Of a stretch of 64,000 nucleotides of DNA, positions 5,753-24,626 are shown in pieces. The DNA lies in the IMG/VR virus record IMGVR_UViG_3300044712_000083, positions 50,192 through 114,191 of that record, one strand, 5' to 3'. The notes below the pieces were generated by a model. It made no database searches. It was not told where the DNA came from and saw only the letters and a list, made by a program, of their open reading frames with translations. A program made the translations under genes and the position numbers. Source of the stretch: a virus. Positions within the stretch are counted from its first letter, which is position 1, and each line of letters starts with the position of its first letter.

Positions 5753-8700
5753 CTATCGCATATTGTTCTCTGCCTGAATTGTAATATCAAATTCTTTAGC
5801 AAAGTCATTACTAAATGATGCACCTAAGTTAATCACTGGTTTGAAACCTGGAGTTAACTTCATCAATGTTTTAATAGGGTAAACTTTCTTTCTAACTTCT
5901 TCAGGAGTTGTTTCTGCATCAAAATCTTGTCCTGTAATTTCTTGACCTAATTGTCCAGCAAACTTAAATACGTCTGCAAACAATCCTAATGCAGGAAGTT
6001 TATCTCCAGAAAGAATACGCTCAATCTCCATAGGGTTATAGAAGAATGAAAGCTCATCTGTAAACTTGTTCAGCATACGTTCTGTGTAACGCTTAGCGTT
6101 CTTCGTAGCTTTATCATCATCATCGTCTGGAGCAATCAAACCAAATCCACCTGTGAACAAGATTGTCATCAATGTAAATAATATACCAAGCTCTTTAATC
6201 TGATTACGAAGGTTGTTTACAATCATATCAGTGAAATCAGCTTTGGACATATTCATCTCTGTTCCTGTACGATCTTTCCACTCTTTCTTATACTTAAGGA
6301 ATAGCTCATCAATGATCGCCATACCCTTCTCATTAGCAGTTAGAATGTTAGTGATGTTAGAGGATAAGTCACGAACACTAGTTACCCATACAGTTGTTAA
6401 TAATCTAAGACGACCTATATCATATCTTTCTCCAGTTACTTTTCCTGTTACAGGATCAATACGTACAGAGAAGTCATCACTTGTTTTCTTGAACTCTGAG
6501 AAACGTACATCAACAAGACGAGGAATCCAGTTTTGGAATACCATCGCACTTCTTGCCCAGATGTTCATACCTGCTTTATTAATATCACCGTTAGATAAGT
6601 TACCCGTGATACTTCTAGCAATGTTTCTTGATAGATTAGTTAGACGTTGTGTCTCATCTAAGTTATTCAAGTCTAATCCAGGGATAACAAGCTTACCGTT
6701 TTCTAAACGTTTAGTAACCCACATGGACTTTGTCTTCTTAAGCTCCTCAATCTCTTCATTAATTTTTTTCTTACTTTCTCTGTATAGAGCAGAAGAGTCA
6801 GCTCTGTTCTGATACTTAGCACTCACATACTGTTTGATATTAACAATGTTACCATCAACAACCATGGAGTTCTTCATCAATGTCAAGAACACAGCTTTAT
6901 CAATAAACTCTTCGGGCTTTCTCATGAAGAACATTAACATGTCTCCAAGGTTAGCTCTAGTAAGTGCTGAGATACCTGCCTCCTCATATAGCTTCTTAAA
7001 CGGACTATCTTTAAGTGGCATGAATGTTTCCATCAATTGAACGAATGTTTCTGCACTTTCTTCATTTTGAAATATACCACTCATTAAATCAGCCTCACTA
7101 CTTAAGAACTCTCTACTTTTAAAGTATGTACCAGCTAATGCAGACATCTGAATGTTTGCACCAAATAAGTTGGCAAGACCAGAGAACGGATCAAGACCTA
7201 ATGCTTTCAACTGATACCACTTATTGATCTTCTCCATTGTCTTAACTGCAGACAAAGGTGTAGGATTCTCTTTGTACACTTCTCTACCAGCAGCCTTGTT
7301 AATCAATCGCTTAATGATATTCATAGGATTACCTATAGCAGTATCTGCATCAGATAAAGGATATCTTTGCTGTAACACTAATGCTTTGTAGAAGTTATCA
7401 TACGTCTCAGTGTTTTCTTTATTCTCTGTAGTAATAACTACTGGTGTACCATCTTCTTTAGTAACAACGTCACCAAGTCTAGTTGTTTGTAAGTGTCCTT
7501 TGAACTCTTCAATTGTACTAAGTAGTTTCAACTGACCAGACACTTCTTTCAAATACTTGTACTTCTGTACGTGTTGAATATATAACACCAAGTTTGCAAA
7601 GATGTCCTCACTAATTTGTGAAAAGTCTGTAGTATCACCAGCTTCTTTCTTTGTAAAGTCTTTGGTGTAGTATTTAGGAATACCGTTCTCAATCTGTTGT
7701 GTAAATTGGTTAATCTCACCAAGTCCAACATCTTTAGATGTAATTCTTAAATCATCTCCAATCTTACCTAAGTTCTCATAGAAATTAGCAATAGCAGAAC
7801 CCACACCATCAAATGCAACCTCCTCAGCCATAGTCTTAGCAACAAATGGTAAGAAGGTTTTCTTAATCATGTTACTAATGTATCCTTCTTCTGCAGCAAT
7901 ATTGTTTACTTTCTCAATAAAGTTATAGAGCTTTAATAATCCTGGATCCTGCATAATTCTTTTGTATTCTTCTGAATACCATTTCTCAAGAGGATGACGC
8001 TTAACAATATAGTTATTCCAACCATCAAAGTCTACACGGTCAATATCATATTTACGTTTCTGTTGTTCAATTAAGAACTTTCTACGTTTGATAGTCTCAT
8101 CGTCATTACCTGGATTGTTTCTTTCTATAGATTTTATTTGTCTATCAAGAACTTCAGCAGCCTCTTTCTTATAAGCTTCTACATCAATATTATTTAGTAA
8201 CCAGTTCTTATCTCCACCTTCTGGATCATTAGCATTCTTATCAACAGCCTCACGGAATTCTTTAGTATAAACATATACTAAGTTATTCATTCTCTTACCC
8301 TCATCATCTTTTTGATAGATGCTTCTAATCTTCTCCATGACGTTACCACCTTCCATCAGTTCTTTTCTGATTTCCAATAGTTCATTAACTAAAGCAATGC
8401 CATCTTTAGAAGCTTTATTTTCTGCAGCTTGTGTAACCTTAAATAAGATTTGTAAAGACTTCGAACCTAAGTCAGATACTCCACGGAACCAAGAGCTAAT
8501 ACCTTTGATTACAGCTTCTGGATCCATCAATCCACCAACTAAGTTTCTCCATCCAATATACTTATCACCAAACCCGCCTTTACCTATTAATAACTTCTTA
8601 ACACTTTGTTGAGTTCTAGCAATAGCACTTGCTTCTAATGTAAGTTCTTCTAATACACGTTTTCTTTCTGCAACTTGTTTCTTCTCCTCTTTAGTCTTAG

Positions 8701-11278
8701 CACTTTCTGCTAACTCATCTGTATAAATAAGATTACCTAATTTGACAGCAACATCTTTGAATCTATCAGATGTTTTGATAAATAATCTCATTTCATCAGA
8801 AAACTCTGATAATTGTTTATCAGTTAATGACTTATCAAATACATCTCTGTCTTTGTATAGTAAGTTGTATTCATTGATGATACGCTCACCAGTGTTTCTT
8901 ATATTACGAATAACCTGAACAAGCTCACTTAGATCACCAGCTGTTTGTGTAATACGAATAGCTCTACTAAGAAGTGCAAGTCTTTCTTTTCTTAAGTCAC
9001 GATCTTCTTCTTTAACTTCTTCTTGTTCTGTCATTTTATATAACAATACAAGATCCGCTACAACTTCATCAAGATCAGTATCACCTGTAGATTCTAATTC
9101 TTCAGATACTGGCAATAAGTATAACTCATTCTCAACATCAATTCTACTAGCATCAACATCTCCAATAGAAATACTAGATAAACGTAAATCTGATTCAGGA
9201 TCTTTTCTATCCTTACGCTTGAACTCCATAGCAATTGGAATAGCTCTCACCATACCAAAGTCCTCAACTCCATATTGCTCACGCAAGATTTGACGATATC
9301 TACTCAACTGAATACCAAATGCACCTTGCTTAAACCAAGCAACATCATCTTGATCATTCTTAATGTGCATGAACTTCCAGTCAAGGATGTGTGTCTTACC
9401 AGAAGGTTCTATAGCTAAGAAGTCAATTGTACCAGCCTCATCTGCAATAGGATCATAGATTACAACCTCAGATAAGATTAATGTATCTTTATCAAGTGTA
9501 TCTATTAATTCTAAATAGTAGTTCTCTAGTTCTTCATACATTCCATATGAAGGAAGATTAATCTCTTCTTGACTAGGAGCTTCTAAAGGTTTTGTTCTTC
9601 TAGTTCCATCTTCATTAAAGTATCTTCTATGGATTTCTTCTAAGTCTAAGTGACCAGCAATACCATAAGTTCTCTTTAATTCATTGAACTTCTTCTCTAT
9701 GTCTGTAAACTCTTTTTTAGGAAACTTCTTATTATACCAAGCTTTAACACGGTCTGTTACACGATTAGCAATTTTCTTAGCACTAGCTTGATTCTCATAC
9801 CAGTTAGTAGCTTCTTCTGTATCTAATAGAATAGGATCAGCCTTTTCATCAGAGTATTTCTTTTTAATAAGATTCTTTGTATCCTCGATGTTCTTTATAA
9901 TTTGCTCTTGAGCAGCAGTTACTGACTTCTGATAGAATACACCATTTGCTTGTAATTGATCTACAGTACCAATGTCTCCTGTAATAATCTGTTGAGCAGC
10001 CTCCTCAAACAAAGACATATCTGTCTTACGATATTGTCCATTGATGAAATCCATAATAGCATTCCACCATCTACGAATCATAGACAGGTTCTCTCTTTCA
10101 AGAAGCTCTGGGTATTGTTGTGAGTTGTCTAGGCTATTGATTATAACCTCAGCGATCAATTTATCTACAGCTTCCTTCTTGATCTTACGAATATCAGGTT
10201 TACCATTTGGTAACTGATAGTCTGGATCATTCTTGTAGGCTTCTAGCACTTCTTTATAGATGGCAAAGCGATCAATCTTAGAGATCATTTCTGTTACCAT
10301 AGAAGGATTCATGATCTCTATCATTGCTGTAGCAACGTGCACAACCTCTTCTGTTAATGCTTGTCCTTCTTTACCATCAGCAATAGCAATAACACGTCTT
10401 ACTAAGTCAGCAAGACCAGTGATATCATTACGCTTAAGTCCAGTTGATTTCATGTAATCAGATAACTTCTGGATAGGTACACCCATCTTCTCAGCTATCT
10501 TCTTAAGTTTTTCTAAAGCTTGCTCAGATGCTACAGACTGACGCATTGGTCCTTTCTTCTGATAGGATGTAGCAGAAGAAGCTGATTTATTAGTTGCTAC
10601 AAACTTTCTAAATCCTTCTATATCTTTTGCAGAACCTAGTATATGAATTTGTTCTGGATCAAATACAGTGACATCATTCTTTGTTACCTTCTCACCATTA
10701 ACATTATACTTAATTGGTAGAATTATAGAATCTTTTTTAGCTGCCTTTAATCTTTTTTCATTTGGTGAAGTAGGACTACCAAATTTTTTTTCACGCATTT
10801 CATCAAAGCCTTCTATTGTTGGTACTATAGTATATGGAGATTTAACATCTAAGATTGCTTGATATACTCTTCCTTTTCCATCTTCACCAATATAAGAAGA
10901 AGTTATTCTTTTACTAGGTGTAAAAAATATACCAGATGTAGTTCCATTAGATGGATCACTCATCTCCCAACCTTCTGAAAATGGCTTTTTAAAAACTTCA
11001 ATATTAGTAGCTTTACTTCCGTGATATAAAATATCTTTTACTTGACTATCAGGAAAGATAGTATCTAAGTATGCAGAGTATTCTTCTTCATCACCAATCT
11101 CAGCTAGTTCAGGAGTAGATGAGAATACACTAGCTACTCCTGGTTTAACTGTTGGTATATATTCTTCTTGAGGAACTTCTCCTTCATATATATCCCATAG
11201 GAAATATGCTATATCGTTTCCTCTAGCTGCTACTAACTGATTCCAAGAATCTAAATTTTTATTTGGACAAGTTGCCAT
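5753..11278 (-). CDS. Large cargo/ejection protein: N-terminal ART-like (polyvalent-type) domain, degenerate zincin, PD-(D/E)xK nuclease, C-terminal hydrophobic helix
   Basis: LYHGS...GIFFTP...VFDPEQI (ART-like), EEVVH, GxAGH...AGTIDFL...ILDWKF...QLSRY (RecB/Cas4-like nuclease) and LGILFTLMTILFTGGFGLI. It follows the RNAP gene, as in crAss-like phages. Confidence 0.7.
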   Translation of the reverse strand: MATCPNKNLDSWNQLVAARGNDIAYFLWDIYEGEVPQEEYIPTVKPGVASVFSSTPELAEIGDEEEYSAYLDTIFPDSQVKDILYHGSKATNIEVFKKPFSEGWEMSDPSNGTTSGIFFTPSKRITSSYIGEDGKGRVYQAILDVKSPYTIVPTIEGFDEMREKKFGSPTSPNEKRLKAAKKDSIILPIKYNVNGEKVTKNDVTVFDPEQIHILGSAKDIEGFRKFVATNKSASSATSYQKKGPMRQSVASEQALEKLKKIAEKMGVPIQKLSDYMKSTGLKRNDITGLADLVRRVIAIADGKEGQALTEEVVHVATAMIEIMNPSMVTEMISKIDRFAIYKEVLEAYKNDPDYQLPNGKPDIRKIKKEAVDKLIAEVIINSLDNSQQYPELLERENLSMIRRWWNAIMDFINGQYRKTDMSLFEEAAQQIITGDIGTVDQLQANGVFYQKSVTAAQEQIIKNIEDTKNLIKKKYSDEKADPILLDTEEATNWYENQASAKKIANRVTDRVKAWYNKKFPKKEFTDIEKKFNELKRTYGIAGHLDLEEIHRRYFNEDGTRRTKPLEAPSQEEINLPSYGMYEELENYYLELIDTLDKDTLILSEVVIYDPIADEAGTIDFLAIEPSGKTHILDWKFMHIKNDQDDVAWFKQGAFGIQLSRYRQILREQYGVEDFGMVRAIPIAMEFKRKDRKDPESDLRLSSISIGDVDASRIDVENELYLLPVSEELESTGDTDLDEVVADLVLLYKMTEQEEVKEEDRDLRKERLALLSRAIRITQTAGDLSELVQVIRNIRNTGERIINEYNLLYKDRDVFDKSLTDKQLSEFSDEMRLFIKTSDRFKDVAVKLGNLIYTDELAESAKTKEEKKQVAERKRVLEELTLEASAIARTQQSVKKLLIGKGGFGDKYIGWRNLVGGLMDPEAVIKGISSWFRGVSDLGSKSLQILFKVTQAAENKASKDGIALVNELLEIRKELMEGGNVMEKIRSIYQKDDEGKRMNNLVYVYTKEFREAVDKNANDPEGGDKNWLLNNIDVEAYKKEAAEVLDRQIKSIERNNPGNDDETIKRRKFLIEQQKRKYDIDRVDFDGWNNYIVKRHPLEKWYSEEYKRIMQDPGLLKLYNFIEKVNNIAAEEGYISNMIKKTFLPFVAKTMAEEVAFDGVGSAIANFYENLGKIGDDLRITSKDVGLGEINQFTQQIENGIPKYYTKDFTKKEAGDTTDFSQISEDIFANLVLYIQHVQKYKYLKEVSGQLKLLSTIEEFKGHLQTTRLGDVVTKEDGTPVVITTENKENTETYDNFYKALVLQQRYPLSDADTAIGNPMNIIKRLINKAAGREVYKENPTPLSAVKTMEKINKWYQLKALGLDPFSGLANLFGANIQMSALAGTYFKSREFLSSEADLMSGIFQNEESAETFVQLMETFMPLKDSPFKKLYEEAGISALTRANLGDMLMFFMRKPEEFIDKAVFLTLMKNSMVVDGNIVNIKQYVSAKYQNRADSSALYRESKKKINEEIEELKKTKSMWVTKRLENGKLVIPGLDLNNLDETQRLTNLSRNIARSITGNLSNGDINKAGMNIWARSAMVFQNWIPRLVDVRFSEFKKTSDDFSVRIDPVTGKVTGERYDIGRLRLLTTVWVTSVRDLSSNITNILTANEKGMAIIDELFLKYKKEWKDRTGTEMNMSKADFTDMIVNNLRNQIKELGILFTLMTILFTGGFGLIAPDDDDDKATKNAKRYTERMLNKFTDELSFFYNPMEIERILSGDKLPALGLFADVFKFAGQLGQEITGQDFDAETTPEEVRKKVYPIKTLMKLTPGFKPVINLGASFSNDFAKEFDITIQAENNMR

Positions 11279-11279
11279 A

Positions 11280-14200
11280 TTAACAGATTAAATCATTTAG
11301 AATTTTACCAATTTCCTTTATGGAGAAGCCAGCAGCTAGTAAGTTCTCTGCAGTTACATCAGCTTTATTCCAAGGCTTACCTCTTAATAGAACTGTTTCT
11401 TCAGCAGTAGGATTCTCAACTACAGCATCTCCTTGATCACCGCGTAATTCATCTCTAACTTCCATAATTATTTTTGAGAATCTTCCTTTATCTTGTTCTA
11501 CACCACCAAGCTTATGTGTAATTTCCATGTTGCCTGTTTCTAATAACTTCTCTAACTTGTCTGGATTCTGAGTGAATGATTCAGTCATTAACTTCTTCAT
11601 CACTTTGTTGTAAGCACCATCCCACTGTTTAGTGTTCAAGTCTTTGATTCCTTCACCAATCTTCTTAGCGTTGTAACCATTTGCTTTAACTAATGAATCT
11701 AAAGTCTTTTGCTGATCAGCAGTTAGTTTACGAGTCTTTAAGTAACTGTTTGTATATAACAATTTAGATGCTTGTAATGCTCCTTCTACAGTTAAGAATA
11801 CTTTATACTTTCCTGCAATTAATGTACGGAAACGCTTAAAGGCAAAGTTACTTAAATCTTTGTATTCTCCACTAGTAAACATTACATTTATTTTTTCAAC
11901 ATCTTCTGTCTGCTCATTCTGTACAGGAGTTCCTAAAGACTTGTCAAAATAGTAAAGTACATTCTCATCTGTAACTTCTGATTTAGAAATACGTTGACCT
12001 TTGCTGTTCTGTGCATTTACAACTTTGATGTATCCATTGTCAATTACAGAAGCTCTATTTGTGTCATAGTATTCATTAGCTCTGAAACCATCACCCAAAG
12101 CATTGATCATCTTATAGATGTAGCTCTTGTATGTTTTACCATCACTACCAATGTTTGTTCTCATGTAAGGTTTTCCATCTGCATCTTTAACACGTTGGAA
12201 CAATCCTTTATATATAAATGAATAGTCTCCTTTAGCTCTCATTGCAAACTTCTGCTTTGATGTAAGCTTAGGATCTTCCCATGTATATGTAATCACATCA
12301 CTATTAGACTCTTTGCTAAATGCAGAGATCTTAATGATCATTGGTAAGTTCTTGAATGCTACAGCTTGCTTCACTGATTTAGGAAGGATAAGATCAGGAT
12401 TAAACTTACGACCTGTAGCTTCACTAACTTTATACTTACCACGCTTAGTAGGTACAACATCGCTATTGTTCCAGTTGTTTCTTTGGAAAGCATTCATTGT
12501 ATAGAAATCATCCAAGTTTGTCATCTTATCAATCTTAGATAAGGCAGCATTGTAGATATCTGTAAAGTCCTCATAAGGAAGTAAAGATGTAAATGAAATA
12601 GGAGATGATGTAAGACCTGACTGTAGAACAGCTACGTTAACTAAGTTCTTGTATAGATCTTCGTTCTCTCTTCCTTTCAAATAATTCTTGATCTCTTCAA
12701 ATGCATAGATGATTTGGTTTTGATCGTACACCTTGTTATCCTTATTGATAATCTGAATGTTATATACGTTGCTACCATCTTGATCAATGGAAGTCATACG
12801 TAACGAGTTGATTACCTGATTGTTATAAAGATCATGAGTTGGATTAGCTTTAACTTCATTCACAAAGTTCATCATCTTATTAGCAAAGTTTTCCTTATCG
12901 CTAATTAATAACTCAGGAATAAACGCTGCCATATTACCATCAACTTGTACAGCCCAGTCAAATAAACTCTTAACTGCCATCTGTGCAACCTTAGTAAAGT
13001 CTCTATCTGACATATCTACATATGGCTCAAGAACACGGTGCATCAACGGTCTAATGTTTCCTGAATCAGAGATTAGGAACTTAGCAAGACCATCTCTAAT
13101 TTCTTTGATGTAGTCATATAGATTTTTGATGAATGATTCTTCCATCAACATATCTACACCAGGAACAACTGTACCCTCACTGTTTAATGATGAGAACATT
13201 GTACCTTGAGCTTTGTCAAGTTGCATTTGCTTCTTGAATACAATGAATGGATCATTGATTGTAGCTGTGTCAAAGTTAGAACCTTGTGTCACTTGATATA
13301 AGTGATTAGCCATTCTAGCATACTTCAAGAACTCCTTCAACATGTATCTCTGCTCAGCTTTCTCTGATGAAGTAAGTTTAGAAACTTTCTTACCAACTAA
13401 ACCTGCAAGAGTATCCGCATCAGGAATCTTTGTAGATTTCTCTGACATAGTAGAAGAGTAATCATTTAGAGTATCTTCTAATACACCATCATTGAACAAC
13501 CAACTATATCCTTGGCTTTCTAACTTACGTAAGAAGTCACGAATGATTGGTTGGTTCATGAACATAGCTACATCACGAATAGGTACACCAGCCTTAACTA
13601 AGAACATCCAAGTGGAGGCTACGTTAGGAGTAGCACCAAGTTCCATAATCCATGGACCTTTTGCAATATCCACATAACCATCAATGAACTGTCCTAAGAT
13701 GTCAGAGATGTATTCTTTAGCTTTGTTCTTAATCATTGACAAAGTAACAACCTTTCCTAATGTAGGATGATCAACTTCATTCTTCATCTCAAAGTTAATC
13801 ACACCATCTCCTAACCACATTTGATCTTCTTCAGACATGTTCTCTATCTTAGGTCTATCTAAGAACATGAACATACGCTGATTGTTAGCATGGTTAGTTT
13901 GGTTAACAGCAGCAATACCAATTGCATACTTACCTGTAACAAACGCATGACGAAGCTTAGACATAAACTCTCTGCTCAACATGTTTCCTGGAGAAGAGTA
14001 GTCTATCTCTTGAATACCAAGTAAACCATTAATCTCAGTTGCTAAACCTTTCAATTGATCAGCTGAGTTAGGTTTAGTTAACTGCTCAAAGTTCTCAGGA
14101 GATGTAACTAGATTCTCAGAAGATTGAATGTAAGCGTTCTGTAGAGATTTTTTATATAATGAATCAATTACAGCTTCTCTTTTTTCTACAGCAGTTATTG

Positions 14201-17200
14201 CTGCTTTTAAATCGCCTTCAATAAATGATTCTTTTTGAGCTTCTTCAAATAACTCATCATATAAAGATGCTTCATCTTTATTCATTGAATCGTACATCTC
14301 AGCAAACTTAGCTCTTGCTTCTTTACCAATTCCATAGAAAGGAATTACTTCAGGATAACCATTCTTGCCTGTACGCAAGTTTTTGAAGTAAATACTCAAC
14401 TTATCTATGTCAAAGTCAGATCCTGCTTTCTGTACAAGTGGTCCTGGAACAATTACAGAGTCACCAAACTCTGCTGGTAAGAACTTAGCAATACGGAATG
14501 CATCAATAGAGTTTTGCTTTTGTGTAGGAATACGGAATGCAATACCAGTGATAGCAGCTAATTGAGCTTTACCTTCTTCAGTGTTATTGAAGTAGTTCAT
14601 CAACTCCTCATCTGTCTTATCAGACTTAAACCAACGACCAACCATAATCTCACATACACGCTGACCATCATCATCTACATAGAATTTCAACACCTCAGAT
14701 ATGTATGCTTTACCTTTAACAGGATCTTTCTTAGCATTAACTGTTTCTAATAGACGAGAAGACATCTGTACCTTTTGACCACCAGTAATCTTTGGAGAGA
14801 TAACTGTAGAATCTGCAATAGAATACAAGATGTTTCTAAGTTGATCATACGCAGGCGTAGCCTCCATGATAACTTGTCCAGCTCTCATTCCTTCTAAAGC
14901 AGAGATCACATTATCGTTTACATCACGACTAGCAATTGAACTAGTTAATAAATCAATTACTTTATCAATGTTCGAAACAACATAACCATCCTTAGTTTTA
15001 GTAAGTCCTAACTTCTTTAATAATGTTTGGTAGCCAGTTTCTGTAATGGCTTCTAAAAGAGCTTGATTGTTTTTAATCTCTTTGTAAAGCTTAGACGCAG
15101 TTTCTTTATTTGTTTCTTGTGACCAAGCAATGAAACGCTCTTCAAACTCTTTACCTGGCATATAGTCTACAGGAACTCCTCCAGCCATAAAGTCCATAGT
15201 GATTAACTTTGTAGCTTGTGATCCACGAGTTACAATGTCTTCACTCTTAGAAGGAACTTCTGATTGAATATCAATGATACCAAAAGGAACATTAACAATC
15301 CCTTTGAACTTAGCGGTGTTCATTGCACCAGACTTATCATATAGATCATTAACTTGCTCAGCACCAACCTTTCTACCACTAGCATATACAGCATAGTCAA
15401 TATCTTCAGCTATCATCTTATCATATAGCTTAAGAGCATTGGTAGAATTAACTAAGTTACCTGCTTCATCCTTCTCACTTAACTCATGTAAAATACGATA
15501 TGATAGAGGGAATAATGCAAACTTGTCTAGCATTATATCATTGTAATCTTTACCATTATCTTTGTTACCACGAGAGATAGGCTTCAATGGAGTGTATGCA
15601 CTCTTGACACCAGGATTTCCTTTAGCAAGAAGTTCTTCTTCTTGTGGACTTAGCTTTTGTTTCTTATCACGCTTCTCCCACGCAATATCATAACGATACT
15701 GACGCTCTTCTGCACTATTCCATTCTCCAGCACGAATTCTAAACTTACGATGTGCAGGGAATGTAATCATACCACCACCATCAGTTTCATCATATGCTTT
15801 CCCCATGTATCCTTTAAGATCATGGATAGCTTTAACGTCTGCTAATGTAATAGTTCTGAAGTGATCACGAATGAAATTACTATAGCCAATTCCACCTTTC
15901 TCAAAGCCTTCATTGTATACACGCTCCATAGCCTTGTTCATCTTAGGGCTACCAGCCATAATCTTTTGACCTGGAGAGTTGAAGTTCTTGATACGCTTTA
16001 ATTCATCAGCATACTGATAAGGATCAGAATACAATAACTTATGCAATTCAATATTAGCAATCATGTAGTTTGCTGTTTGGGCATACATGATTTTATTGAA
16101 TTGCTCTTTAGAAATTGTAGACTTAGTAATGAATGGTAGATCCTCTACCTTGTATGAGTTCTCATCTTTTGTAGACTCAGTTACAATCTCGTATTGTTTT
16201 AATACGTTTTCTGTAAATGCATTTGCATCTTTAGTAATGAAATTAACAATAGCTTTATTAATTTCTTTCTCGTACTTCTCGTAAACTTTTTCTATAGAAC
16301 CTTCAGCATTAACAATCTTATCATGTAAAGCATTGCGTTCTGTTTCAGTCTTAGCAGCATCATCAGCTAAAATAGCTTTGAAGAAACGTAAATCTTTCTT
16401 GCTACGAGTTTCTTGTTTGTTCTGTACAAAGGTACGATTTGTATCACGAGATAAGCTAAGCTCATCCATGAAGTAACCTTTGAAGATGTTTAACACTTCT
16501 TCTGGATCTTTTGCTGTTACATGTTTACCCATGTAGTTCATCCACTCCATAGAAGCATCGCCTGGAACAAGACTTAGGAAGTATCCTGCTTCATTCAAGT
16601 TCATTTCAAGAATAGTACGCTCTTTGAAGTTTAACTTAGATGAAGGTTTCTTCTTGTTAGTAACAGCATTGTTCATACCATCAGCAACACCTGGCTTGAA
16701 ATATCTCTCTGAATTTTCCTTACGAAAACCTTTAGACGTAAACATTGATTTAATCAATACAGAGTTTCTTGCAAAGTCATCTGTAAGAATATATGAATAA
16801 CGTGTGTCACGTAACTCTTCTAAGTTATCAATCTTTGATAATACATCAAACAATTCACTAGCAGCATTTGGTCCAATGAATGTCTGTGTCTTCTCACCAT
16901 TAATGTTGTAGTATGTACTACTAAATTCAGGGTTATCAATCTTAGCCTTAAGTTCAGATAGAGTGTTCAGACGACCATCAATATCCAAAGTCTTTCCTTG
17001 GTTACTAATAATCTTACTTCCTTTAGAAATACTTTCATAAATACCTTTTACAGCATCATCAAAGTTCTTTCTATCTTGAACATTAAGTCTATCAACTTCA
17101 GAACGAGTGAAACCTTTAATTCCTAAATTATTTAAGAATGCTATTTGACCAGCAGTTTTCTTAAGATCAACTTTAGATAAACTACCTTTCTTACCTACAT

Positions 17201-20200
17201 AATTAACGCCTGACTTCTGAATGTATAATGATCCAGTTCTTGCTCGGTTAGTTAAACCTGCAAGGAAGTCTTTCTTAACTTGTCTAGCAGCTGTAGAGAA
17301 GTTAGAATCACCCACTTGGATATCACCATTAGCAAGAATGTAAACGTTCTTTACATCAGGGTTTTGCTTCTTGAACAATCTCCAGAATGCATTAACTAAG
17401 TTAACATCACCTTCTGTTGCTAAATCAGATAAGTCTCCATTGTGTGTTAAACGATTAACAACTCTCTCGTAGTTCTTATCACGCTTTGCTAAGTCAGTAA
17501 GATTATCAATCATCTCCTCTACATTACGTGCACCTACTACAGCATTCTGAATAGTTACATAAGCTTGTGCTGTAGGGATCAAACGAACACCACCTAATGC
17601 TGTCTCAACAAATTCTCCTGTTACAGGATCTACTTGTGGTAAGCTAGAAATTAATAACTTAACTGCAGCGTTGGCTTTCTTCAAACTATCAATCTTATCA
17701 GCTTGTTGGTAATCTCCACGTCCTGAGTTATTCTCATCATTTAGAATAACATTATCGTTCTCATCAAACTCAATACCAAACTTCTTCAAGTATGAATCAA
17801 GTTCACTGAAGATGTTATCCCACTGTTGATTAACTACAGAAAGTAAATTGTTTTGATTAGTTACTAACTTAGTGTAAACATCTTCTTCAATCTTTTTACT
17901 ATTACGTAATTCTTTAAGTAACTCAATGTTTGTTTCAAATAATTCTAATGTGATGTCTTTAAGCTCATCATATAGAATGTCTTTGTTTACATTGTTAAAC
18001 TCAAAGAAGTTTGTATCTGGTCTTTCAAGAATAGAGATTACAGCTTCGAATGTCATGTTCTGCAAGATGTCATTCAATTGAGCACTTGTTAAACCTGCCA
18101 CACGATACTTACTTGCATTGTCTCCAAATGCATCTTCAATATCAATGATTCCCTTGTTAGCAAAAGACAAAGCAGATTCATTAGCACTTGATTGTGCATA
18201 GTATCCAGATCCCATTTGTTGGAAGATCTTCTCTAAGTTACTCTTGGCTTGAGGACCAACAAATAATTCTTTAATGAATTGCCATAAGTCAGCAAAGAAC
18301 TGAGCAATAGCAGACTTCTCTTTATTAGCAGCTACAGGACGCTTTCCGTATTGGAAGTAATCTCTAGCTTCTTCAGCCATCTGCTCTCTAATCTCATCAT
18401 TACTAGCTTTAGAATACTCTATAGTTCTACCAGTTTCTCTATCTACAAATGTTCCTGTTCTAGCTCTAAACTCAGCACGTAATGCAGAACGCTCTGCAGG
18501 AGTAGTGAACATGTCCATTACTGCCTCAAATGCCTCGTGATAGATTGAACCAACCTCAGCATTCTCAGCTAAGTAGATAGCAGAATCTTTCAACATACCA
18601 AAAGCTCTAACACCATTAGCACCTTGAATTAAATTCTTAACACGATATAAAGGAATAGTTGGGAAGTTAGCTTTCATAAATGCAGCTACCTTCTCCCAGT
18701 TCTCACCTTCGTAATGATTGATTGATTCTAATAATTTTGCAAGTCTATACTTAGAATTATTACGTCTAGACTTACGTCTTTCTTGTTTAAGTAATTGCTC
18801 AGCAGTTGGTTCTTCTGATGTTGTTTCTTCTTCAGCTGTTTCTAATGCTGCTAATTCTTCATCATATTTACTATTTATCCAGTCTACAGCCTCTTCATAA
18901 GTATCAAATATATCACTCTCCTTTGTAGTCTGATAGAAAGCACTAAATCTTCCATCAGCTCTAGGTTCTTTAGGAACAAAGTCAAACGGATCACCTGTGT
19001 CTTCTAAATTTTTTTCTCTTCTTCTTTCTATATCAGCTATAGCATCTGTAGTTTCTTCTTCGGTAACCTCTTCCTCTTCAACAACTTCTTCCTCAGCAAC
19101 TTCTTGTGGAGTTGTTTTATTCTGCATAAGCTGAGCAGAAATAATCAACTGTGTAGCAATTTTAAATAACTCCTCTGGTTCTAAATCTTTAGCTGTTTCA
19201 AAATCAAGAGGAGCGTCTGCAGGATATGCTATCTTAGCAATAGCAAATAACTTATTAACTGCTTCTTGATGTTCTGGATCAGATGCAACAGAACGCATCT
19301 CATCATTGATCTTAACGTCTACAGCATATCCATCACCTTCTTTTACAGCAGTGTATTCAATCTCACCCAAGTATGGATGTGATTCTAATTGAGTTGTATT
19401 TAAGTCCTTACCATTTGTTTTAGTAGGCTTAGGTTCTGATGTAGTCTTCTTAGGTTTATTTGCCTTGCTTGCTGGAGTTAACTTTTTACTAGCCATAGCT
19501 TTTCTATTACTAGCAGTAGCTTTCTTCTCAGCTTTCTTCTCAGCAGTTTCAACTTTACTTCTATAGTATTCACGCTTACCATTGATAGTAAAGTAGATTG
19601 AATCTCTATTGATATCTGTAGCAGCTTCAATAGGTTTTAATCTTGTAGCTAATGGAATATCTTCTGTAGCTCTAGCAGAACCATCTGGGTTTTTGTTAGA
19701 TAGTAAGAATGATTGATAGTTCTCCCATCTCACCTTTGTCAACTCACCTTCTTCATTTACACCAGTGATTTGGTAGTAAGGAGCATCCCAGTTCTTAGTA
19801 GCTTGTGTAGAGTTAACATTACCATACATTCCTTGGATGATAGCAATAATTCCTTCTTTGCGTCTTTCTAATTCTGTAGGAGTGAAAGGAATCTTTAATC
19901 CTTTACCAGACATAGACAACAATAATGAATCCTCTTCATCGTTTGCATACTCAAAGAATATACTACTGAAGCCAGGATCTTTTTTGTTTCCTTCGGAATC
20001 TTTAGGAGTTCCCCAATAAACTACAGTCTTTAACCATTCGATAATCTCTGGTGAATCAGATGATATAGCATTACCATCTTTGAAGATATTATTAGATAGA
20101 CGTAAGATCATCTCATAGATAACTTCAGCTTCTTTCTTGTTGAAGTTTCTATTAACTAATTTAGCAAGACCATTTCTTAATGCAAGAAGAGGCATACCAA

Positions 20201-23200
20201 CTTTAGCTTCAATAGAAACCTCACCTCTACGCTCATTACCTTTCACTGTAGGAACAATGATTAAAGGAGTAGTTTCTAGCGAATCATCGGTAATTAATTG
20301 CGCATCTTGTGCAGAAGTTCTTGTTTGATAGTCAGGTTGATCTTTACCATTCTCATCTTTATATGTATTGTAAACAGGTACACCAAAAGATGCCTCAATG
20401 CTTTCAGGAATTAACTCATCACTAGCTAAGTATTCTTCACGATCTTGAGCATGTTGTTCTTTAATCTGCTTAATAAGATCTTCATCAGTTCCTTTTCGGA
20501 ACATAGATTCTCCACCATACTTCTCGCTCCATCTAAATTCTTCAGTAGGCATTACTTGATATACTGCCTCATCTAATACACGCTTTTCAAATACTTCATC
20601 TGTCTCACCTTCCTTACGTACAATACGCTCTCCGAACTCATTAATTACATGTAACTTTCCATCCTCATCCTCTTCTACAACTACCATAGGTAACATAGTC
20701 TTATGATCAACATCATTTGTAGCAAGATGTTGAGTTAATCCTGGGATACCTAAAGTAACTTGTGTTTTAAAGTTAACGATTACACCCTTAACTCTATTTC
20801 TAAGTTCTGTAGGAAAGTTTGAAAGACGTGCACCAAAACGAACTGATCTATCATATCCTTCAAACTGTTGAGAAGGAATTGTAGAAGAAGCAATATCAGC
20901 TGTGTCTTTCTTACTAGTTGTTTCTATAGTGTTATCTATAGGACCTACTGGAACGCTAGACTTATCTTCTGTACCAAGGATAGCTTTTTGTAAAGCTTTA
21001 TCTTTTCTTAACTTCTCCTCTTCAGCTAATTGTTCTTCGTATTCTTTAATTGTATTCTGAAATGAATCTAAGATTGTAGCCTTAGACATTTGTTGTGCAA
21101 TTAAGTTATCTAACTCAGAAGTTAATTCACCAACTTTAGCAATTAATGCATTAGTTTTAATTTGTAAGCTAGGAATCTTTAACTCATCAGCAAAGTCATT
21201 GATGTCAGATTCTAATTGTAATACAGCTTCTGTAAATCCTAGACGCTGTTCAATAAACAATTTAGCACCTTCTTCTCCTTGGAACTTTTCAATCTGTTCT
21301 TGTAAAGCTTCAATGTTCAAAGGCATACCAGGATTCTCTTCTCTAAGTCTCTTGATATAATCGCTTAATAAAGATAAAGCATCTGTCAATGCTTCTTGTG
21401 TAGCCTGTAATAAATCTTGATTGTATTTAATAGCATCGTTTGTATTGTCAATTAAGTCTTCTAATACATTGATGTCTTTCTTAACTTGCTCAAGAATGTC
21501 ACTAGCTTCTCCTTCCATAGTATCCATATTATCATATAGATTCTCAATGTAAGGAATAGCAGATTCTAATTCTGTTTTCTCAGCCTCAAGACTTGCAATC
21601 TCTTCTGTTAAATCATTTGCAAGTTTAGCTAGATTATTAATCGTAGTCTTTACTTTCTTAGTTAGCTTCTTACCACCATCTACTTCTGAATTAATTTTCT
21701 TTAATTCTTCTTCTGCAGTAGCTAAACGTTCTTTGTTCTTTGTAAGCTTCTCTGTAACCTCATCTAATCTTTCTTTTGTATTGTTGTAAAGATCAGTGAT
21801 CATCTTAGTTCTTAGGTAAGATGGATCTGTAGAAAGTGTATCTTCTGAAGATAAGTAATCCTCTAATGCTTGTTGCTCCTCAGCAGTTAACTTACCTATA
21901 GCTTGAAGCATTGCTTGTTTATAGCCTTTCTTAGCTTTAAACATAGACTGCTTAACTTCTCTTGTAACAGTTTTACCTTTAGCATTCTTATACTTGAATA
22001 CTAATGCATCTTTTACTGGATCATATTCTAATGTACCTTCAGTACCTTTTCCTTCCTCATCTTTAACTCCGTGGTGAAGATACTTCTTATTCCAGTTAGC
22101 TAAATAGAATTTAAGCTTGCTATTCTTAGCAGCATCAGCAGTATCACCTACATGTAACTTGTTGAAATAGTTAGCAGGAACATCTAACTCTGTACCATCA
22201 GATTCTTTAATACGATATGTACCATCCTCGTTCTTTCCAATTAAAGTGAACTTAGGAGATTTGTAAACGTCTTCACCTTTCTCATTCTGTGTAGCAGGAC
22301 GTGGAGAATAATACTCTTTACCAATCTGTAAGTTTAAATCACCATTCTTAGCTTTAACTTTGATAGTTTCGTTCTCACCAGCTTGTTCAGCTGCCTTACG
22401 CATTTCTTCTTGCAGCTTTTCTTTCATATCCATTACGACATACTTTAATGGATTATCAACGATATCGTTGTATTCTGCAATGAATTTACTTCTACGTAAT
22501 GCTAACTCCATCACGTCTACAGCAGACTGAGTTAGTTCTTTCTTATCATCATTATCTAATAATGGAAGCTCATCAATTTTTGCAAGTATTGCATCTCTTG
22601 TTTCATTTGCAATCTCACCAGTGGTGTTTGCTTCTTGAATTGCTGCACTAACATCAATTTCACCTAATGATGTTTCTAATTGAGGAATACGTCTGTTATA
22701 ATCAGTTACTTTAGCTTTAGCATAAGTTAACTTGTTGATGATAGATTTCGGATACAAAGGCTTCTTTGTTTCAGGATCTATCATTCCTTCATACTTCAAC
22801 TTAATACCTTCGTGAATCTTAGCTGTAGTATTAGCCTGCTCTTGAATAGCATCTAATCTAGCAATGAAAGATTCTTTATTATCAGTCTCAGCTGCTTTAC
22901 CAGATTTTTGTAAATCTTCAAAATCACTAATAGCTTGTTGTCTAAGTTCATTGATTTCTAAATCAATAGCTTCTTTAGCACCATACTCTAAACGTGCAGC
23001 AATAGAAGCATGTAAGTAATCAAATTCCTTATCTTTAGATTCTAGTTTATCATTTGCAACAATTGCATCTGCACGTTCTTTTTGAGCAGCTGCACCAATT
23101 TTAACAAAGTCATTTACTGCTTTTAACTTATCACCAATCATACTATCGTTCCAAGCTTTGATTGCTGACTCTCTTAATCTACCTTCTTCTCCACCATAAC

Positions 23201-24626
23201 CTGTAAACCCTCTTTGTTTTACAGTACCAACAACACTAGATAAACCTCCTGAGAATGCCCCTGTAAAAATATTTAGTAAACCCTCGTCTGTAGTTAATGC
23301 TTCTTCAATACCATAGTTTACACCATCCTTAATAATGTCTGCACCTTCTCCTTTGTATTTTTTACTAAAGTAATTTTGTGTAGCATTCTGAATAGCAAAC
23401 TGTGCACCTTCCTCAAATCCTTCTGATTTACTAAAAAGTAATCCACCTACTTTAGCTCCTTGATATAATAACTTTTTAAATCCTGATTGAGGCAATGCGC
23501 TAACATACTTACCTTCTCTCAGCATAGTATTAAGTACCTTTGTTTCACCTTTGAATGTAGATGAAAATACTTTAGGTAACATGATGTGGTTAGTAACTGT
23601 CAACAACGCAGTGTTTGCTAACCAGCTGTAGTTACCTACACGCTCAGCATAGTCATTAATCTCAGCCAATGCATCATCATCTGGAGCATAACCATGTTTT
23701 TGTTTATACTCAGCAATCATCTTCTCTCTAAACTCTTGAGAGTTATTCAACGCTTCAAAACCTGCCTCAGATGCAGTAGCAGTTGTAGCTACAATTGATT
23801 TATTAACTACTGCAGGATCTTTAAGTTTACCTCCTACAGATGCTTTTGCTCTTGCTAAAATTTCTTCAAGTCTAGATGTAGTGTTTGCAATAGACGCAGA
23901 TTCTCCTGCTACAACTCCTTCACCAATTACAGCATCTGCTTCAGCTGCCCACTTAGCACCAAATCCAGAAATTTTAGATGTGACACCTAAAGCTTTTAAT
24001 GCACCACCCCAAACAAAACCAGCACCAATAGAACCTACTGTATATCCTAAGTTCTTTACAATGTTATCAAAGAAGAAGTTACCTGTAAATAAGTTAGCAG
24101 GTTCCCACCAATTACCTTTTTTCTCACGTTCTGTTTTGTAATGAGCGTAATTGTTTTCTAATTGTTGTGTATACTCATTAAGACTTTCAGATAAATCATT
24201 CTTCCAAAATGAAGTAGCATCTTGATCACCAATAGCTTTGGTAATACCATATACTGTTCCTACAGTACCATTAATGAATGCACTTGATGCAATACCTGCG
24301 AATTTAGCAACACCATTGATTGCTTTATCACCAAGAGATTGTTGCTGCGCATACATCTCTTCGTTATCTCTACCAGCATAAAATTTTGGATAACGTCCTG
24401 AAAAATCAATCTCACTTCCAGGAATAGAAGGCAAGTCATTTCCTTTACTTGTGGTTTGTAATGCTAAGTTGTTAAACATTTCCACCTGATTAAGAGGACC
24501 AGCACTTGCTCTAGGAGCAGATGCGCCACGTATTCTTGGTAGGTTCGCTGTTTCATCTGGAAAAACTACACCTAGATTCTCAGTAGGTTTGAATCCTTTG
24601 AATTCTTCTGGAAGTTGATCTGCCAT
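11280..24626 (-). CDS. Giant virion-associated RNA polymerase (crAss-like two-barrel RNAP) with a zincin-like region and a C-terminal NADAR domain
   Basis: FRIPTQ...GSDFDIDKL catalytic motif (DFDID at about 14403-14417), DETDGGG, and YVDIAK. HEAFE zincin-like motif near 18530. C-terminal LSNF...VEGALQASK...LLETG...MEVRDEL. Confidence 0.9.
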   Translation of the reverse strand: MADQLPEEFKGFKPTENLGVVFPDETANLPRIRGASAPRASAGPLNQVEMFNNLALQTTSKGNDLPSIPGSEIDFSGRYPKFYAGRDNEEMYAQQQSLGDKAINGVAKFAGIASSAFINGTVGTVYGITKAIGDQDATSFWKNDLSESLNEYTQQLENNYAHYKTEREKKGNWWEPANLFTGNFFFDNIVKNLGYTVGSIGAGFVWGGALKALGVTSKISGFGAKWAAEADAVIGEGVVAGESASIANTTSRLEEILARAKASVGGKLKDPAVVNKSIVATTATASEAGFEALNNSQEFREKMIAEYKQKHGYAPDDDALAEINDYAERVGNYSWLANTALLTVTNHIMLPKVFSSTFKGETKVLNTMLREGKYVSALPQSGFKKLLYQGAKVGGLLFSKSEGFEEGAQFAIQNATQNYFSKKYKGEGADIIKDGVNYGIEEALTTDEGLLNIFTGAFSGGLSSVVGTVKQRGFTGYGGEEGRLRESAIKAWNDSMIGDKLKAVNDFVKIGAAAQKERADAIVANDKLESKDKEFDYLHASIAARLEYGAKEAIDLEINELRQQAISDFEDLQKSGKAAETDNKESFIARLDAIQEQANTTAKIHEGIKLKYEGMIDPETKKPLYPKSIINKLTYAKAKVTDYNRRIPQLETSLGEIDVSAAIQEANTTGEIANETRDAILAKIDELPLLDNDDKKELTQSAVDVMELALRRSKFIAEYNDIVDNPLKYVVMDMKEKLQEEMRKAAEQAGENETIKVKAKNGDLNLQIGKEYYSPRPATQNEKGEDVYKSPKFTLIGKNEDGTYRIKESDGTELDVPANYFNKLHVGDTADAAKNSKLKFYLANWNKKYLHHGVKDEEGKGTEGTLEYDPVKDALVFKYKNAKGKTVTREVKQSMFKAKKGYKQAMLQAIGKLTAEEQQALEDYLSSEDTLSTDPSYLRTKMITDLYNNTKERLDEVTEKLTKNKERLATAEEELKKINSEVDGGKKLTKKVKTTINNLAKLANDLTEEIASLEAEKTELESAIPYIENLYDNMDTMEGEASDILEQVKKDINVLEDLIDNTNDAIKYNQDLLQATQEALTDALSLLSDYIKRLREENPGMPLNIEALQEQIEKFQGEEGAKLFIEQRLGFTEAVLQLESDINDFADELKIPSLQIKTNALIAKVGELTSELDNLIAQQMSKATILDSFQNTIKEYEEQLAEEEKLRKDKALQKAILGTEDKSSVPVGPIDNTIETTSKKDTADIASSTIPSQQFEGYDRSVRFGARLSNFPTELRNRVKGVIVNFKTQVTLGIPGLTQHLATNDVDHKTMLPMVVVEEDEDGKLHVINEFGERIVRKEGETDEVFEKRVLDEAVYQVMPTEEFRWSEKYGGESMFRKGTDEDLIKQIKEQHAQDREEYLASDELIPESIEASFGVPVYNTYKDENGKDQPDYQTRTSAQDAQLITDDSLETTPLIIVPTVKGNERRGEVSIEAKVGMPLLALRNGLAKLVNRNFNKKEAEVIYEMILRLSNNIFKDGNAISSDSPEIIEWLKTVVYWGTPKDSEGNKKDPGFSSIFFEYANDEEDSLLLSMSGKGLKIPFTPTELERRKEGIIAIIQGMYGNVNSTQATKNWDAPYYQITGVNEEGELTKVRWENYQSFLLSNKNPDGSARATEDIPLATRLKPIEAATDINRDSIYFTINGKREYYRSKVETAEKKAEKKATASNRKAMASKKLTPASKANKPKKTTSEPKPTKTNGKDLNTTQLESHPYLGEIEYTAVKEGDGYAVDVKINDEMRSVASDPEHQEAVNKLFAIAKIAYPADAPLDFETAKDLEPEELFKIATQLIISAQLMQNKTTPQEVAEEEVVEEEEVTEEETTDAIADIERRREKNLEDTGDPFDFVPKEPRADGRFSAFYQTTKESDIFDTYEEAVDWINSKYDEELAALETAEEETTSEEPTAEQLLKQERRKSRRNNSKYRLAKLLESINHYEGENWEKVAAFMKANFPTIPLYRVKNLIQGANGVRAFGMLKDSAIYLAENAEVGSIYHEAFEAVMDMFTTPAERSALRAEFRARTGTFVDRETGRTIEYSKASNDEIREQMAEEARDYFQYGKRPVAANKEKSAIAQFFADLWQFIKELFVGPQAKSNLEKIFQQMGSGYYAQSSANESALSFANKGIIDIEDAFGDNASKYRVAGLTSAQLNDILQNMTFEAVISILERPDTNFFEFNNVNKDILYDELKDITLELFETNIELLKELRNSKKIEEDVYTKLVTNQNNLLSVVNQQWDNIFSELDSYLKKFGIEFDENDNVILNDENNSGRGDYQQADKIDSLKKANAAVKLLISSLPQVDPVTGEFVETALGGVRLIPTAQAYVTIQNAVVGARNVEEMIDNLTDLAKRDKNYERVVNRLTHNGDLSDLATEGDVNLVNAFWRLFKKQNPDVKNVYILANGDIQVGDSNFSTAARQVKKDFLAGLTNRARTGSLYIQKSGVNYVGKKGSLSKVDLKKTAGQIAFLNNLGIKGFTRSEVDRLNVQDRKNFDDAVKGIYESISKGSKIISNQGKTLDIDGRLNTLSELKAKIDNPEFSSTYYNINGEKTQTFIGPNAASELFDVLSKIDNLEELRDTRYSYILTDDFARNSVLIKSMFTSKGFRKENSERYFKPGVADGMNNAVTNKKKPSSKLNFKERTILEMNLNEAGYFLSLVPGDASMEWMNYMGKHVTAKDPEEVLNIFKGYFMDELSLSRDTNRTFVQNKQETRSKKDLRFFKAILADDAAKTETERNALHDKIVNAEGSIEKVYEKYEKEINKAIVNFITKDANAFTENVLKQYEIVTESTKDENSYKVEDLPFITKSTISKEQFNKIMYAQTANYMIANIELHKLLYSDPYQYADELKRIKNFNSPGQKIMAGSPKMNKAMERVYNEGFEKGGIGYSNFIRDHFRTITLADVKAIHDLKGYMGKAYDETDGGGMITFPAHRKFRIRAGEWNSAEERQYRYDIAWEKRDKKQKLSPQEEELLAKGNPGVKSAYTPLKPISRGNKDNGKDYNDIMLDKFALFPLSYRILHELSEKDEAGNLVNSTNALKLYDKMIAEDIDYAVYASGRKVGAEQVNDLYDKSGAMNTAKFKGIVNVPFGIIDIQSEVPSKSEDIVTRGSQATKLITMDFMAGGVPVDYMPGKEFEERFIAWSQETNKETASKLYKEIKNNQALLEAITETGYQTLLKKLGLTKTKDGYVVSNIDKVIDLLTSSIASRDVNDNVISALEGMRAGQVIMEATPAYDQLRNILYSIADSTVISPKITGGQKVQMSSRLLETVNAKKDPVKGKAYISEVLKFYVDDDGQRVCEIMVGRWFKSDKTDEELMNYFNNTEEGKAQLAAITGIAFRIPTQKQNSIDAFRIAKFLPAEFGDSVIVPGPLVQKAGSDFDIDKLSIYFKNLRTGKNGYPEVIPFYGIGKEARAKFAEMYDSMNKDEASLYDELFEEAQKESFIEGDLKAAITAVEKREAVIDSLYKKSLQNAYIQSSENLVTSPENFEQLTKPNSADQLKGLATEINGLLGIQEIDYSSPGNMLSREFMSKLRHAFVTGKYAIGIAAVNQTNHANNQRMFMFLDRPKIENMSEEDQMWLGDGVINFEMKNEVDHPTLGKVVTLSMIKNKAKEYISDILGQFIDGYVDIAKGPWIMELGATPNVASTWMFLVKAGVPIRDVAMFMNQPIIRDFLRKLESQGYSWLFNDGVLEDTLNDYSSTMSEKSTKIPDADTLAGLVGKKVSKLTSSEKAEQRYMLKEFLKYARMANHLYQVTQGSNFDTATINDPFIVFKKQMQLDKAQGTMFSSLNSEGTVVPGVDMLMEESFIKNLYDYIKEIRDGLAKFLISDSGNIRPLMHRVLEPYVDMSDRDFTKVAQMAVKSLFDWAVQVDGNMAAFIPELLISDKENFANKMMNFVNEVKANPTHDLYNNQVINSLRMTSIDQDGSNVYNIQIINKDNKVYDQNQIIYAFEEIKNYLKGRENEDLYKNLVNVAVLQSGLTSSPISFTSLLPYEDFTDIYNAALSKIDKMTNLDDFYTMNAFQRNNWNNSDVVPTKRGKYKVSEATGRKFNPDLILPKSVKQAVAFKNLPMIIKISAFSKESNSDVITYTWEDPKLTSKQKFAMRAKGDYSFIYKGLFQRVKDADGKPYMRTNIGSDGKTYKSYIYKMINALGDGFRANEYYDTNRASVIDNGYIKVVNAQNSKGQRISKSEVTDENVLYYFDKSLGTPVQNEQTEDVEKINVMFTSGEYKDLSNFAFKRFRTLIAGKYKVFLTVEGALQASKLLYTNSYLKTRKLTADQQKTLDSLVKANGYNAKKIGEGIKDLNTKQWDGAYNKVMKKLMTESFTQNPDKLEKLLETGNMEITHKLGGVEQDKGRFSKIIMEVRDELRGDQGDAVVENPTAEETVLLRGKPWNKADVTAENLLAAGFSIKEIGKILNDLIC

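Follow-up and report, generated by a model that had tools for sequence, protein, structure and literature searches.

The NADAR hydrolases encoded by phages, such as AdfN, remove ADP-ribose linked to guanine (G-ADPr) from DNA and defeat the DarTG1 system (bioRxiv 10.1101/2024.07.11.602962; PMC11125620), and NADARs also remove ADP-ribose linked to cytosine (PMC12945103); the thymine adduct of DarT2 is not reversed by NADARs (PMC11543638, PMC11125620). According to Schuller et al., two residues are conserved across the superfamily, E43 and K50 (E88 and K95 in E. coli C7), and the third position (E125) is Glu in NADARs of the YbiA type, Asp in those of the BC4488 type and His in those of phages (PMC11543638). 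The virion RNA polymerases of crAss-like phages have DFDxD as their catalytic motif, which in phi14:2 gp66 is DFDID at residues 1361-1365 (Drobysheva et al., 10.1101/2020.03.07.982082), and the packaging and ejection of such polymerases are described for phi14:2 (10.1101/2020.03.07.982082) and for gp47, gp49 and gp50 of crAss001 (PMC10172136). The gene considered here, open reading frame (ORF) A, lies on the minus strand of a 64,000-nucleotide stretch of viral DNA (the window, positions 50,192 to 114,191 of IMGVR_UViG_3300044712_000083, a 114,191-bp IMG/VR virus record with direct terminal repeats) and combines the two: judged by its sequence, ORF A is a crAss-type virion RNA polymerase, and it contains a genuine NADAR domain near its C-terminal end, an architecture that is apparently unpublished.

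ORF A comprises, in order, an unassigned N-terminal region of ~2000 aa, the RNA polymerase module, the NADAR domain and a Cys-ended tail. An earlier prediction, made by a model from the letters of the window, had placed a NADAR domain fused to the C-terminus of a virion RNA polymerase at 11440-11895 and had quoted the peptides FTSGEYKDLSNF, TVEGALQASK, AKKIG, QWD, MKKLMTESFTQNP, LLETGNMEITH and IIMEVRDEL. All of these peptides are found, though on the minus strand, in the translation of window positions 11280-12200; a plus-strand reading of 11440-11895 is rejected because that frame is full of stops. ORF A and its parts are as follows.

11280..24626, minus strand: ORF A, giant and uninterrupted, 4448 aa, crAss-type virion RNA polymerase polyprotein by its sequence
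11442..11894, minus strand: NADAR domain of the His type, residues 4245-4395, recognized by profile, fold and conservation
11784..11786, minus strand: E4281, predicted catalytic Glu, aligned with E43 of the P. nicotianae NADAR (8BAU)
11763..11765, minus strand: K4288, predicted phosphate-binding Lys, aligned with K50 of the P. nicotianae NADAR (8BAU)
11514..11516, minus strand: H4371, a His where P. nicotianae has E125, a hallmark of phage (AdfN-type) NADARs (PMC11543638)
13647..15206, minus strand: RNA polymerase catalytic region, residues 3141-3660, homologous to phi14:2 gp66 residues 1145-1676
14403..14417, minus strand: catalytic DFDID motif, D3404-D3408, counterpart of 1361-DFDID-1365 in gp66 (10.1101/2020.03.07.982082)
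11283..11408, minus strand: C-terminal mini-domain, residues 4407-4448, ending in Cys4448, with a predicted local distance difference test score (pLDDT) of 76-94

The NADAR match of ORF A is far beyond chance. The Pfam NADAR model (PF08719, curated cut-off 35.1 bits) gives 37.1 bits for the 306-aa C-terminal piece of ORF A and 36.6 bits in a genome-wide search, and 32.6 bits, under the cut-off, when the entire 4448-aa sequence is scored. When 1.84 billion cluster representatives (50% identity) are searched with phmmer, at least 490 relatives have E <= 1e-3, including 269 at E <= 1e-10, and a profile of 28 relatives (A1) matches both YbiA of E. coli (2B3W; E 1.8e-16) and the NADAR of Phytophthora nicotianae (8BAU; E 6e-10). 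The AlphaFold2 model produced from the A1 alignment has a mean pLDDT of 90.4, and the top three matches of this model to the PDB by Foldseek are all NADAR structures: 2B3W (E 1e-6, template modelling (TM) score 0.71, probability 1.00), 8BAU, and the DarT1-linked NADAR of Geobacter lovleyi (8BAT), which ranks only third with E 0.03; nothing beyond these three falls below E 0.9. A search of PHROGs with the NADAR region returns an unnamed family only. Thus, the claim that ORF A contains a NADAR domain is borne out by the Pfam cut-off, the profile match to YbiA and the structural comparison, and the domain is predicted to remove ADP-ribose. That NADARs reverse guanine ADP-ribosylation, which the original prediction also stated, is established for the phage NADARs cited above.

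The domain resembles YbiA (2B3W) and the P. nicotianae NADAR (8BAU; PMC11543638) in its fold and in the ExxxQxxK motif that holds the catalytic Glu and Lys, although those enzymes are free-standing cellular proteins and the domain of ORF A is embedded in a larger one. Alignment to 8BAU places E43 and K50 onto E4281 and K4288, and ungapped continuation of the same alignment places E125 onto H4371; comparison with T4 gp30.3 by hhalign puts a His in the same column as H4371 (83.5%, E 8e-6), and the Pfam family Phage_30_3 is matched by 5 of 41 relatives. The domain is therefore like AdfN and T4 gp30.3 in being a phage-encoded NADAR with His for the third acidic residue, but the similarity to AdfN is remote (profile E 8e-6) and by profile the domain is closer to YbiA. 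DarG1, the antitoxin of DarTG1 (PMC11543638), is likewise a NADAR hydrolase acting on G-ADPr, the putative substrate of the ORF A domain, but DarG1 uses Asp171 where ORF A has His, and the ORF A domain lacks an N-terminal extension and has no DarT beside it, its neighbors being the polymerase and an ART-PolyVal protein in a phage genome that was not itself searched with a DarT model. Conservation was counted over 253 distinct domain sequences: E4281 is kept in 241/243, K4288 in 241/241, H4371 in 244/245 and R4391 in 243/243, and Q4285, W4335 and T4370 are also kept in 241-245 of ~245 distinct relatives. The near-invariance of E4281, Q4285, K4288, W4335, T4370-H4371 and R4391 argues for an active enzyme, and by these alignments the ORF A domain is a His-type (AdfN-like) NADAR under strong purifying selection. 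Of the catalytic Glu, Lys and Asp that had been predicted, the Glu and Lys are intact, but the third residue is His rather than Asp or Glu.

The carrier of the domain is recognized by GSDFDIDK at residues 3402-3409 of ORF A and by a profile of 30 sequences around this motif (A3), which matches gp66 of phi14:2 (PDB 6VR4) over gp66 residues 1145-1676 with E 2e-88 and 301 bits; D264, D266 and D268 of the A3 alignment are invariant. Single-sequence searches of the giant ORFs against the PDB give no match, and 6VR4 is found by profile only. The likeness of ORF A to gp66 thus consists of DFDID and 500 residues of profile homology; the difference is that gp66 has 2,180 aa and no match to the NADAR profile, whereas ORF A is twice as long and has a NADAR cassette. 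The ORF A gene is located in a cargo block downstream of the crAss muzzle protein (PF25731), a position like that of the crAss001 cargo genes gp47, gp49 and gp50 (PMC10172136). By homology to phi14:2 gp66 and crAss001 gp47/49/50 and by gene position, ORF A is predicted to be packaged in the virion and ejected. The fusion of a NADAR to the C-terminus of the polymerase was correctly predicted as to the carrier and as to a location near the C-terminal end, but the NADAR is not at the very C-terminus: it is followed by a linker and a 42-aa mini-domain. This mini-domain is predicted to form a beta-hairpin and two helices, has a weak match to HTH_38 and the pattern GY(S/T)xxEIGKxLKxIC, and is common to NADAR-bearing and NADAR-less polymerases (e.g., the tails of P0183, P0186, P0197 and P0210).

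The polymerase core is common to more than 1281 giant proteins (E <= 1e-10), and ~5-10% of the related polymerases carry a NADAR: PF08719 is present in 12 of the best 120 polymerase homologues (8 that constitute the window's own clade and 4 of the 112 outside it) and in 3 of 65 loci in a polymerase-anchored sample of viral contigs. Conversely, of 86 proteins that have a NADAR and a length of 2000 aa or more, 75 have the polymerase motif G.DxDxD; the fusion is recurrent. The NADAR may be N-terminal (cr126_1, P0022), internal (P0021 and many loci) or C-terminal (ORF A). The alignment of NADAR-less relatives to ORF A ends at 4202-4245 and is followed directly by a short Cys-ended tail, and since several of these relatives have the same mini-domain as ORF A residues 4407-4448, the NADAR sits between the polymerase core and the tail. 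Thus, the NADAR is a mobile cassette in crAss-like polymerases. Existing annotation labels the cr126_1 protein in GenBank as "DUF1768 domain-containing protein" and several proteins at JGI as "YbiA (DUF1768 family)"; no publication discussing a fusion of NADAR (DUF1768) to a crAss polymerase was found, and such a fusion goes unmentioned in Yutin 2021 and in the zeta-crAss paper.

The function that best accommodates these results, and in which we place middling confidence, is that the ORF A NADAR is an injected eraser of base-linked ADP-ribose, serving as a ready-made shield for nucleic acids. A His-type NADAR cassette of 150 residues, added in frame where the polymerase core ends (~4240) and ahead of the conserved Cys-ended tail, would enter the cell together with the polymerase and the DNA, and would hydrolyze the N-glycosidic bond between ADP-ribose and the nucleobase on incoming phage DNA or nascent early RNA; by precedent the position would be N2 of guanine, with cytosine as a possibility. 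Blocking adducts from host ADP-ribosyltransferases (ARTs) would be removed before the expression of any phage gene, and the tether to the polymerase would keep the NADAR at the template. ORF A would be like AdfN in its role as an early-deployed eraser, but AdfN, with ~150 aa, stands alone and is made once infection has begun, whereas the NADAR of ORF A lies inside a 4448-aa polymerase and would be delivered pre-made. Among the polyvalent virion-embedded effectors of Iyer et al. 2022 (PMC9503650), ART, NADAR, Macro and SLOG domains are likewise delivered with the DNA and act early; the difference is that here the carrier is the polymerase itself. What chiefly favors a nucleic-acid adduct as the substrate, rather than a soluble signal, is that the neighbors of the NADAR mostly act on nucleic acids. 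In 41 diverse loci, the Pfam domains within 550 aa of the NADAR include an AlkB-like 2-oxoglutarate-Fe(II) oxygenase in 7, a superfamily 1 (SF1) helicase (AAA_30/Pif1/UvrD) in 7, DUF7831 in 6 and ART-PolyVal in 4; SLOG domains (cpYpsA, YAcAr, DprA-like) adjoin it in 5-7, with cpYpsA in 5, and one locus (L010) has NADAR, ART-PolyVal and AlkB in this order in a single polypeptide. Phage NADARs of the AdfN type, a proven counter-defense, are made only after infection has started; an injected NADAR would act before gene expression and would close the interval in which DNA-ADP-ribosylating defenses work, and the recurrence of a mobile fusion would make crAss-like polymerases a natural catalogue of pre-loaded anti-defense enzymes.

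Several points weigh against this function, and the first of these concerns the target. The original prediction named host DarT1-type defense as the source of the lesions, and this is not borne out. The survey for DarT (PF14487) covered 401 sampled species genomes of Bacteroidota, a phylum taken as the usual host of crAss phages. DarT is present in 34 of the 401 genomes, and in 13 of 13 loci inspected (the L098-L103, L265-L272 set) its partner is a macrodomain protein of ~345 aa, as in systems of the DarTG2 type. No DarT1-NADAR system was found in the Bacteroidota sample, and no NADAR is located beside DarT in 28 DarT-positive Bacteroidota genomes according to the Pfam NADAR model, the sensitivity of which for DarT1-linked NADARs was not checked. 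Since only macrodomain-type DarTG2, which makes thymine adducts, was seen and such adducts are beyond the reach of NADARs, DarT1 is not supported as the target, and the real target is probably not a DarT1 system. Given that only macrodomain-type DarTG was found in the sample of the host phylum, the adduct may come from a guanine- or cytosine-directed ART defense yet to be discovered, or from an ART of the phage itself. One inspected DarT locus also has a weak, below-cut-off match to Panacea (SocA-like). Further, T4 gp30.3 and YbiA failed to rescue cells from DarT1 toxicity (PMC11125620); the T4-type (His) NADAR hydrolyzes G-ADPr in vitro but did not rescue DarT1 toxicity outside T-even infection. 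The large terminase of the phage gives no host assignment.

58201-60225, minus strand: large terminase (TerL), nearest to that of Leptolyngbya phage Lbo-JY46 with 39% identity

Lbo-JY46 is a cyanophage in which neither the crAss polymerase profile nor NADAR finds a match; the next matches of TerL are in Cellulophaga and gut crAss-like phages at 27-31% (Cellulophaga 31%). The active site also departs from those of YbiA and the P. nicotianae NADAR in more than the exchange of E125 for His: the D130/W133 loop is rebuilt, with GGVEQDKGRF in the window copy, a form found in a minority of relatives that is without the Trp of the common TQDKGKWG loop, and R93 of the Phytophthora enzyme is not kept, being replaced by Tyr in the window copy and by Ser in the family. 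Finally, Iyer et al. 2022 hold that phage NADARs mostly target soluble derivatives of ADP-ribose (PMC9503650).

The last point leads to an alternative in which the injected NADAR acts at entry on low-molecular-weight ADP-ribose derivatives, breaking down isomers of cyclic ADP-ribose or further immune signals and toxins derived from NAD. Iyer et al. 2022 suggested such a role for most NADAR, Macro, SLOG and Nudix domains of phages. Their arguments include virion packaging and a soluble signal for phage NADARs as well as combination with SLOG (PMC9503650), and the SLOG domains that adjoin the NADAR in 5-7 of 41 relatives agree with this, but AlkB and SF1 helicases are equally common as neighbors, and the phage NADARs tested so far all act on ADP-ribose linked to bases in DNA. 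A diffusible substrate, moreover, needs no covalent tether between the NADAR and a template-bound polymerase, and each virion would deliver only a few copies of the NADAR, the worked example of Bayfield et al. assuming six of each polymerase protein (PMC10172136). Degradation of a soluble signal is therefore judged unlikely.

Another alternative, already suggested in the original prediction, is that the NADAR counteracts ARTs of the phage itself, two of which are recognized in the same cargo-gene block.

5753..11278, minus strand: ORF B, the next gene, 1841 aa, starting 2 nt after the ORF A stop
10646..11032, minus strand: ART-PolyVal domain of ORF B, residues 83-211 (PF18760, 42.3 bits versus a cut-off of 31.2; 49 bits in another search)
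30436-36099, minus strand: ORF F, 1887 aa, putative cargo protein of the same cargo-gene block
34621..35115, minus strand: second ART, ADPrib_exo_Tox, ORF F residues 329-493 (PF03496, 37.7 bits versus a cut-off of 23.4)

Like DarT with NADAR or YarT with YbiA (a precedent described in PMC11125620), the ORF B ART-PolyVal and the NADAR would then be writer and eraser: the ART would place ADP-ribose on host nucleic acids, and the NADAR would be an antidote or limiter for the injected ARTs, keeping phage DNA and RNA free of it. The arrangement of the genes suits such a pair, because the NADAR and the start of the ART-PolyVal, at residue 83 of the next gene, are ~400 nt apart, the ART-PolyVal having YHG, FFT and PEQ as candidate catalytic residues, with the Glu retained in the conserved PEQIHILG; the same order of NADAR and then ART is repeated in cr130_1 and cr131_1, the two domains occur in one polypeptide in P0025, L010, L011 and L055, and the ART, where it is present in NADAR loci, lies within ~5 kb. 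The Cys at the end of ORF A also faces the only Cys of ORF B. Across relatives, however, the pairing is weak. ART-PolyVal is found in 7 of 49 NADAR-bearing records (4 of the 19 near-complete ones) and ADPrib_exo_Tox in 1 of 49, and a hidden Markov model built here for the ART matches 11 of 80 NADAR loci; in the other direction, NADAR is found in 9 of 80 ART-PolyVal loci and in 7 of the 47 with the polymerase motif. Against base rates of ~5% for each, the enrichment of NADAR with ART-PolyVal amounts to an odds ratio of only ~3 (p ~0.09, relatedness ignored). An obligate pairing is rejected, since most NADAR records have no recognizable ART and most ART loci have no NADAR; so loose a link may allow a dedicated pair of writer and eraser in the window genome but makes no general rule. 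In addition, NADARs have no known action on protein-linked ADP-ribose. The suggestion thus stands in that an ART-PolyVal opens the next gene, but with so weak a pairing across relatives we consider it quite improbable that the ORF A NADAR serves mainly against the phage's own ARTs.

A decayed or non-enzymatic module that takes no part in removing ADP-ribose, be it a remnant kept for structure or docking or, in the manner of YbiA, a metabolic N-glycosidase acting on riboflavin intermediates, would account for a Pfam score only just at the cut-off and a loop that departs from the family majority, and a non-enzymatic phage NADAR is mentioned by Johannesman et al., but with catalytic positions near-invariant over 253 distinct sequences, a fold predicted with high confidence and no riboflavin context, this is very improbable.

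A broader and more tentative proposal is that crAss-like virion polymerases have in their C-terminal extension a "template-cleaning" toolkit with exchangeable parts. NADAR (for de-ADP-ribosylation), AlkB (for dealkylation), SF1 helicase and SLOG modules would travel on the injected polymerase, and base lesions on the incoming genome would be reversed during its first transcription. This proposal is doubtful as yet; if true, it would be a pre-packaged phage analogue of transcription-coupled direct repair, aimed at the DNA-modifying defenses of the host.

Additional modules, DUF1848 and FtsK-gamma (PF09397), occur beside the NADAR along with AlkB, SF1, SLOG and DUF7831 in a set of relatives comprising L010 (4353-8165), P0024, P0015, P0013 and P0025. 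In T4 (L005, 123454-128765), alt, which encodes an injected ART, and 30.3, which encodes a NADAR, are located ~3 kb apart on the same strand, which is a loose parallel to the window. Matches to the NADAR family on contigs of bacterial metagenome-assembled genomes are probably due to mis-binned phage contigs; two of these (L090, L095) carry the polymerase motif. The giant genes of cr131_1 (L002) and cr130_1 (L003), both Suoliviridae, contain dozens of in-frame stops according to translation table 11, which indicates that stop codons are reassigned, and the ART-PolyVal match in cr131_1 contains TAG.

The 4448 aa of ORF A include just two Cys, C3325 and the final C4448 (window 11283-11285), and ORF B has only one in 1841 aa, Cys4 (window 11267-11269), which faces Cys4448 of ORF A. 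Each of the 112 polymerase homologues P0172-P0283 has a Cys within its last 8 residues, as do 143 of 170 relatives that carry a NADAR, although the overall frequency of Cys is 0.05-0.13%, and the polymerase proteins of cr126_1, cr130_1 and cr131_1 likewise have a terminal Cys. The pattern of terminal Cys fits a head-to-tail disulfide chain, which would tie the NADAR end of ORF A to the ART end of ORF B. The sole internal Cys of ORF A, C3325 (window 14652-14654), is part of a conserved (R/N)VCEIMVGRWF motif located 75-85 aa upstream of the catalytic Asp; the motif is present in most of the window's wider clade, and the stretch of gp66 that matches this region in the profile alignment appears to be without Cys. 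C3325 may serve as a redox partner or have a purely structural role, and exactly two Cys are present in 125 of 177 giant proteins.

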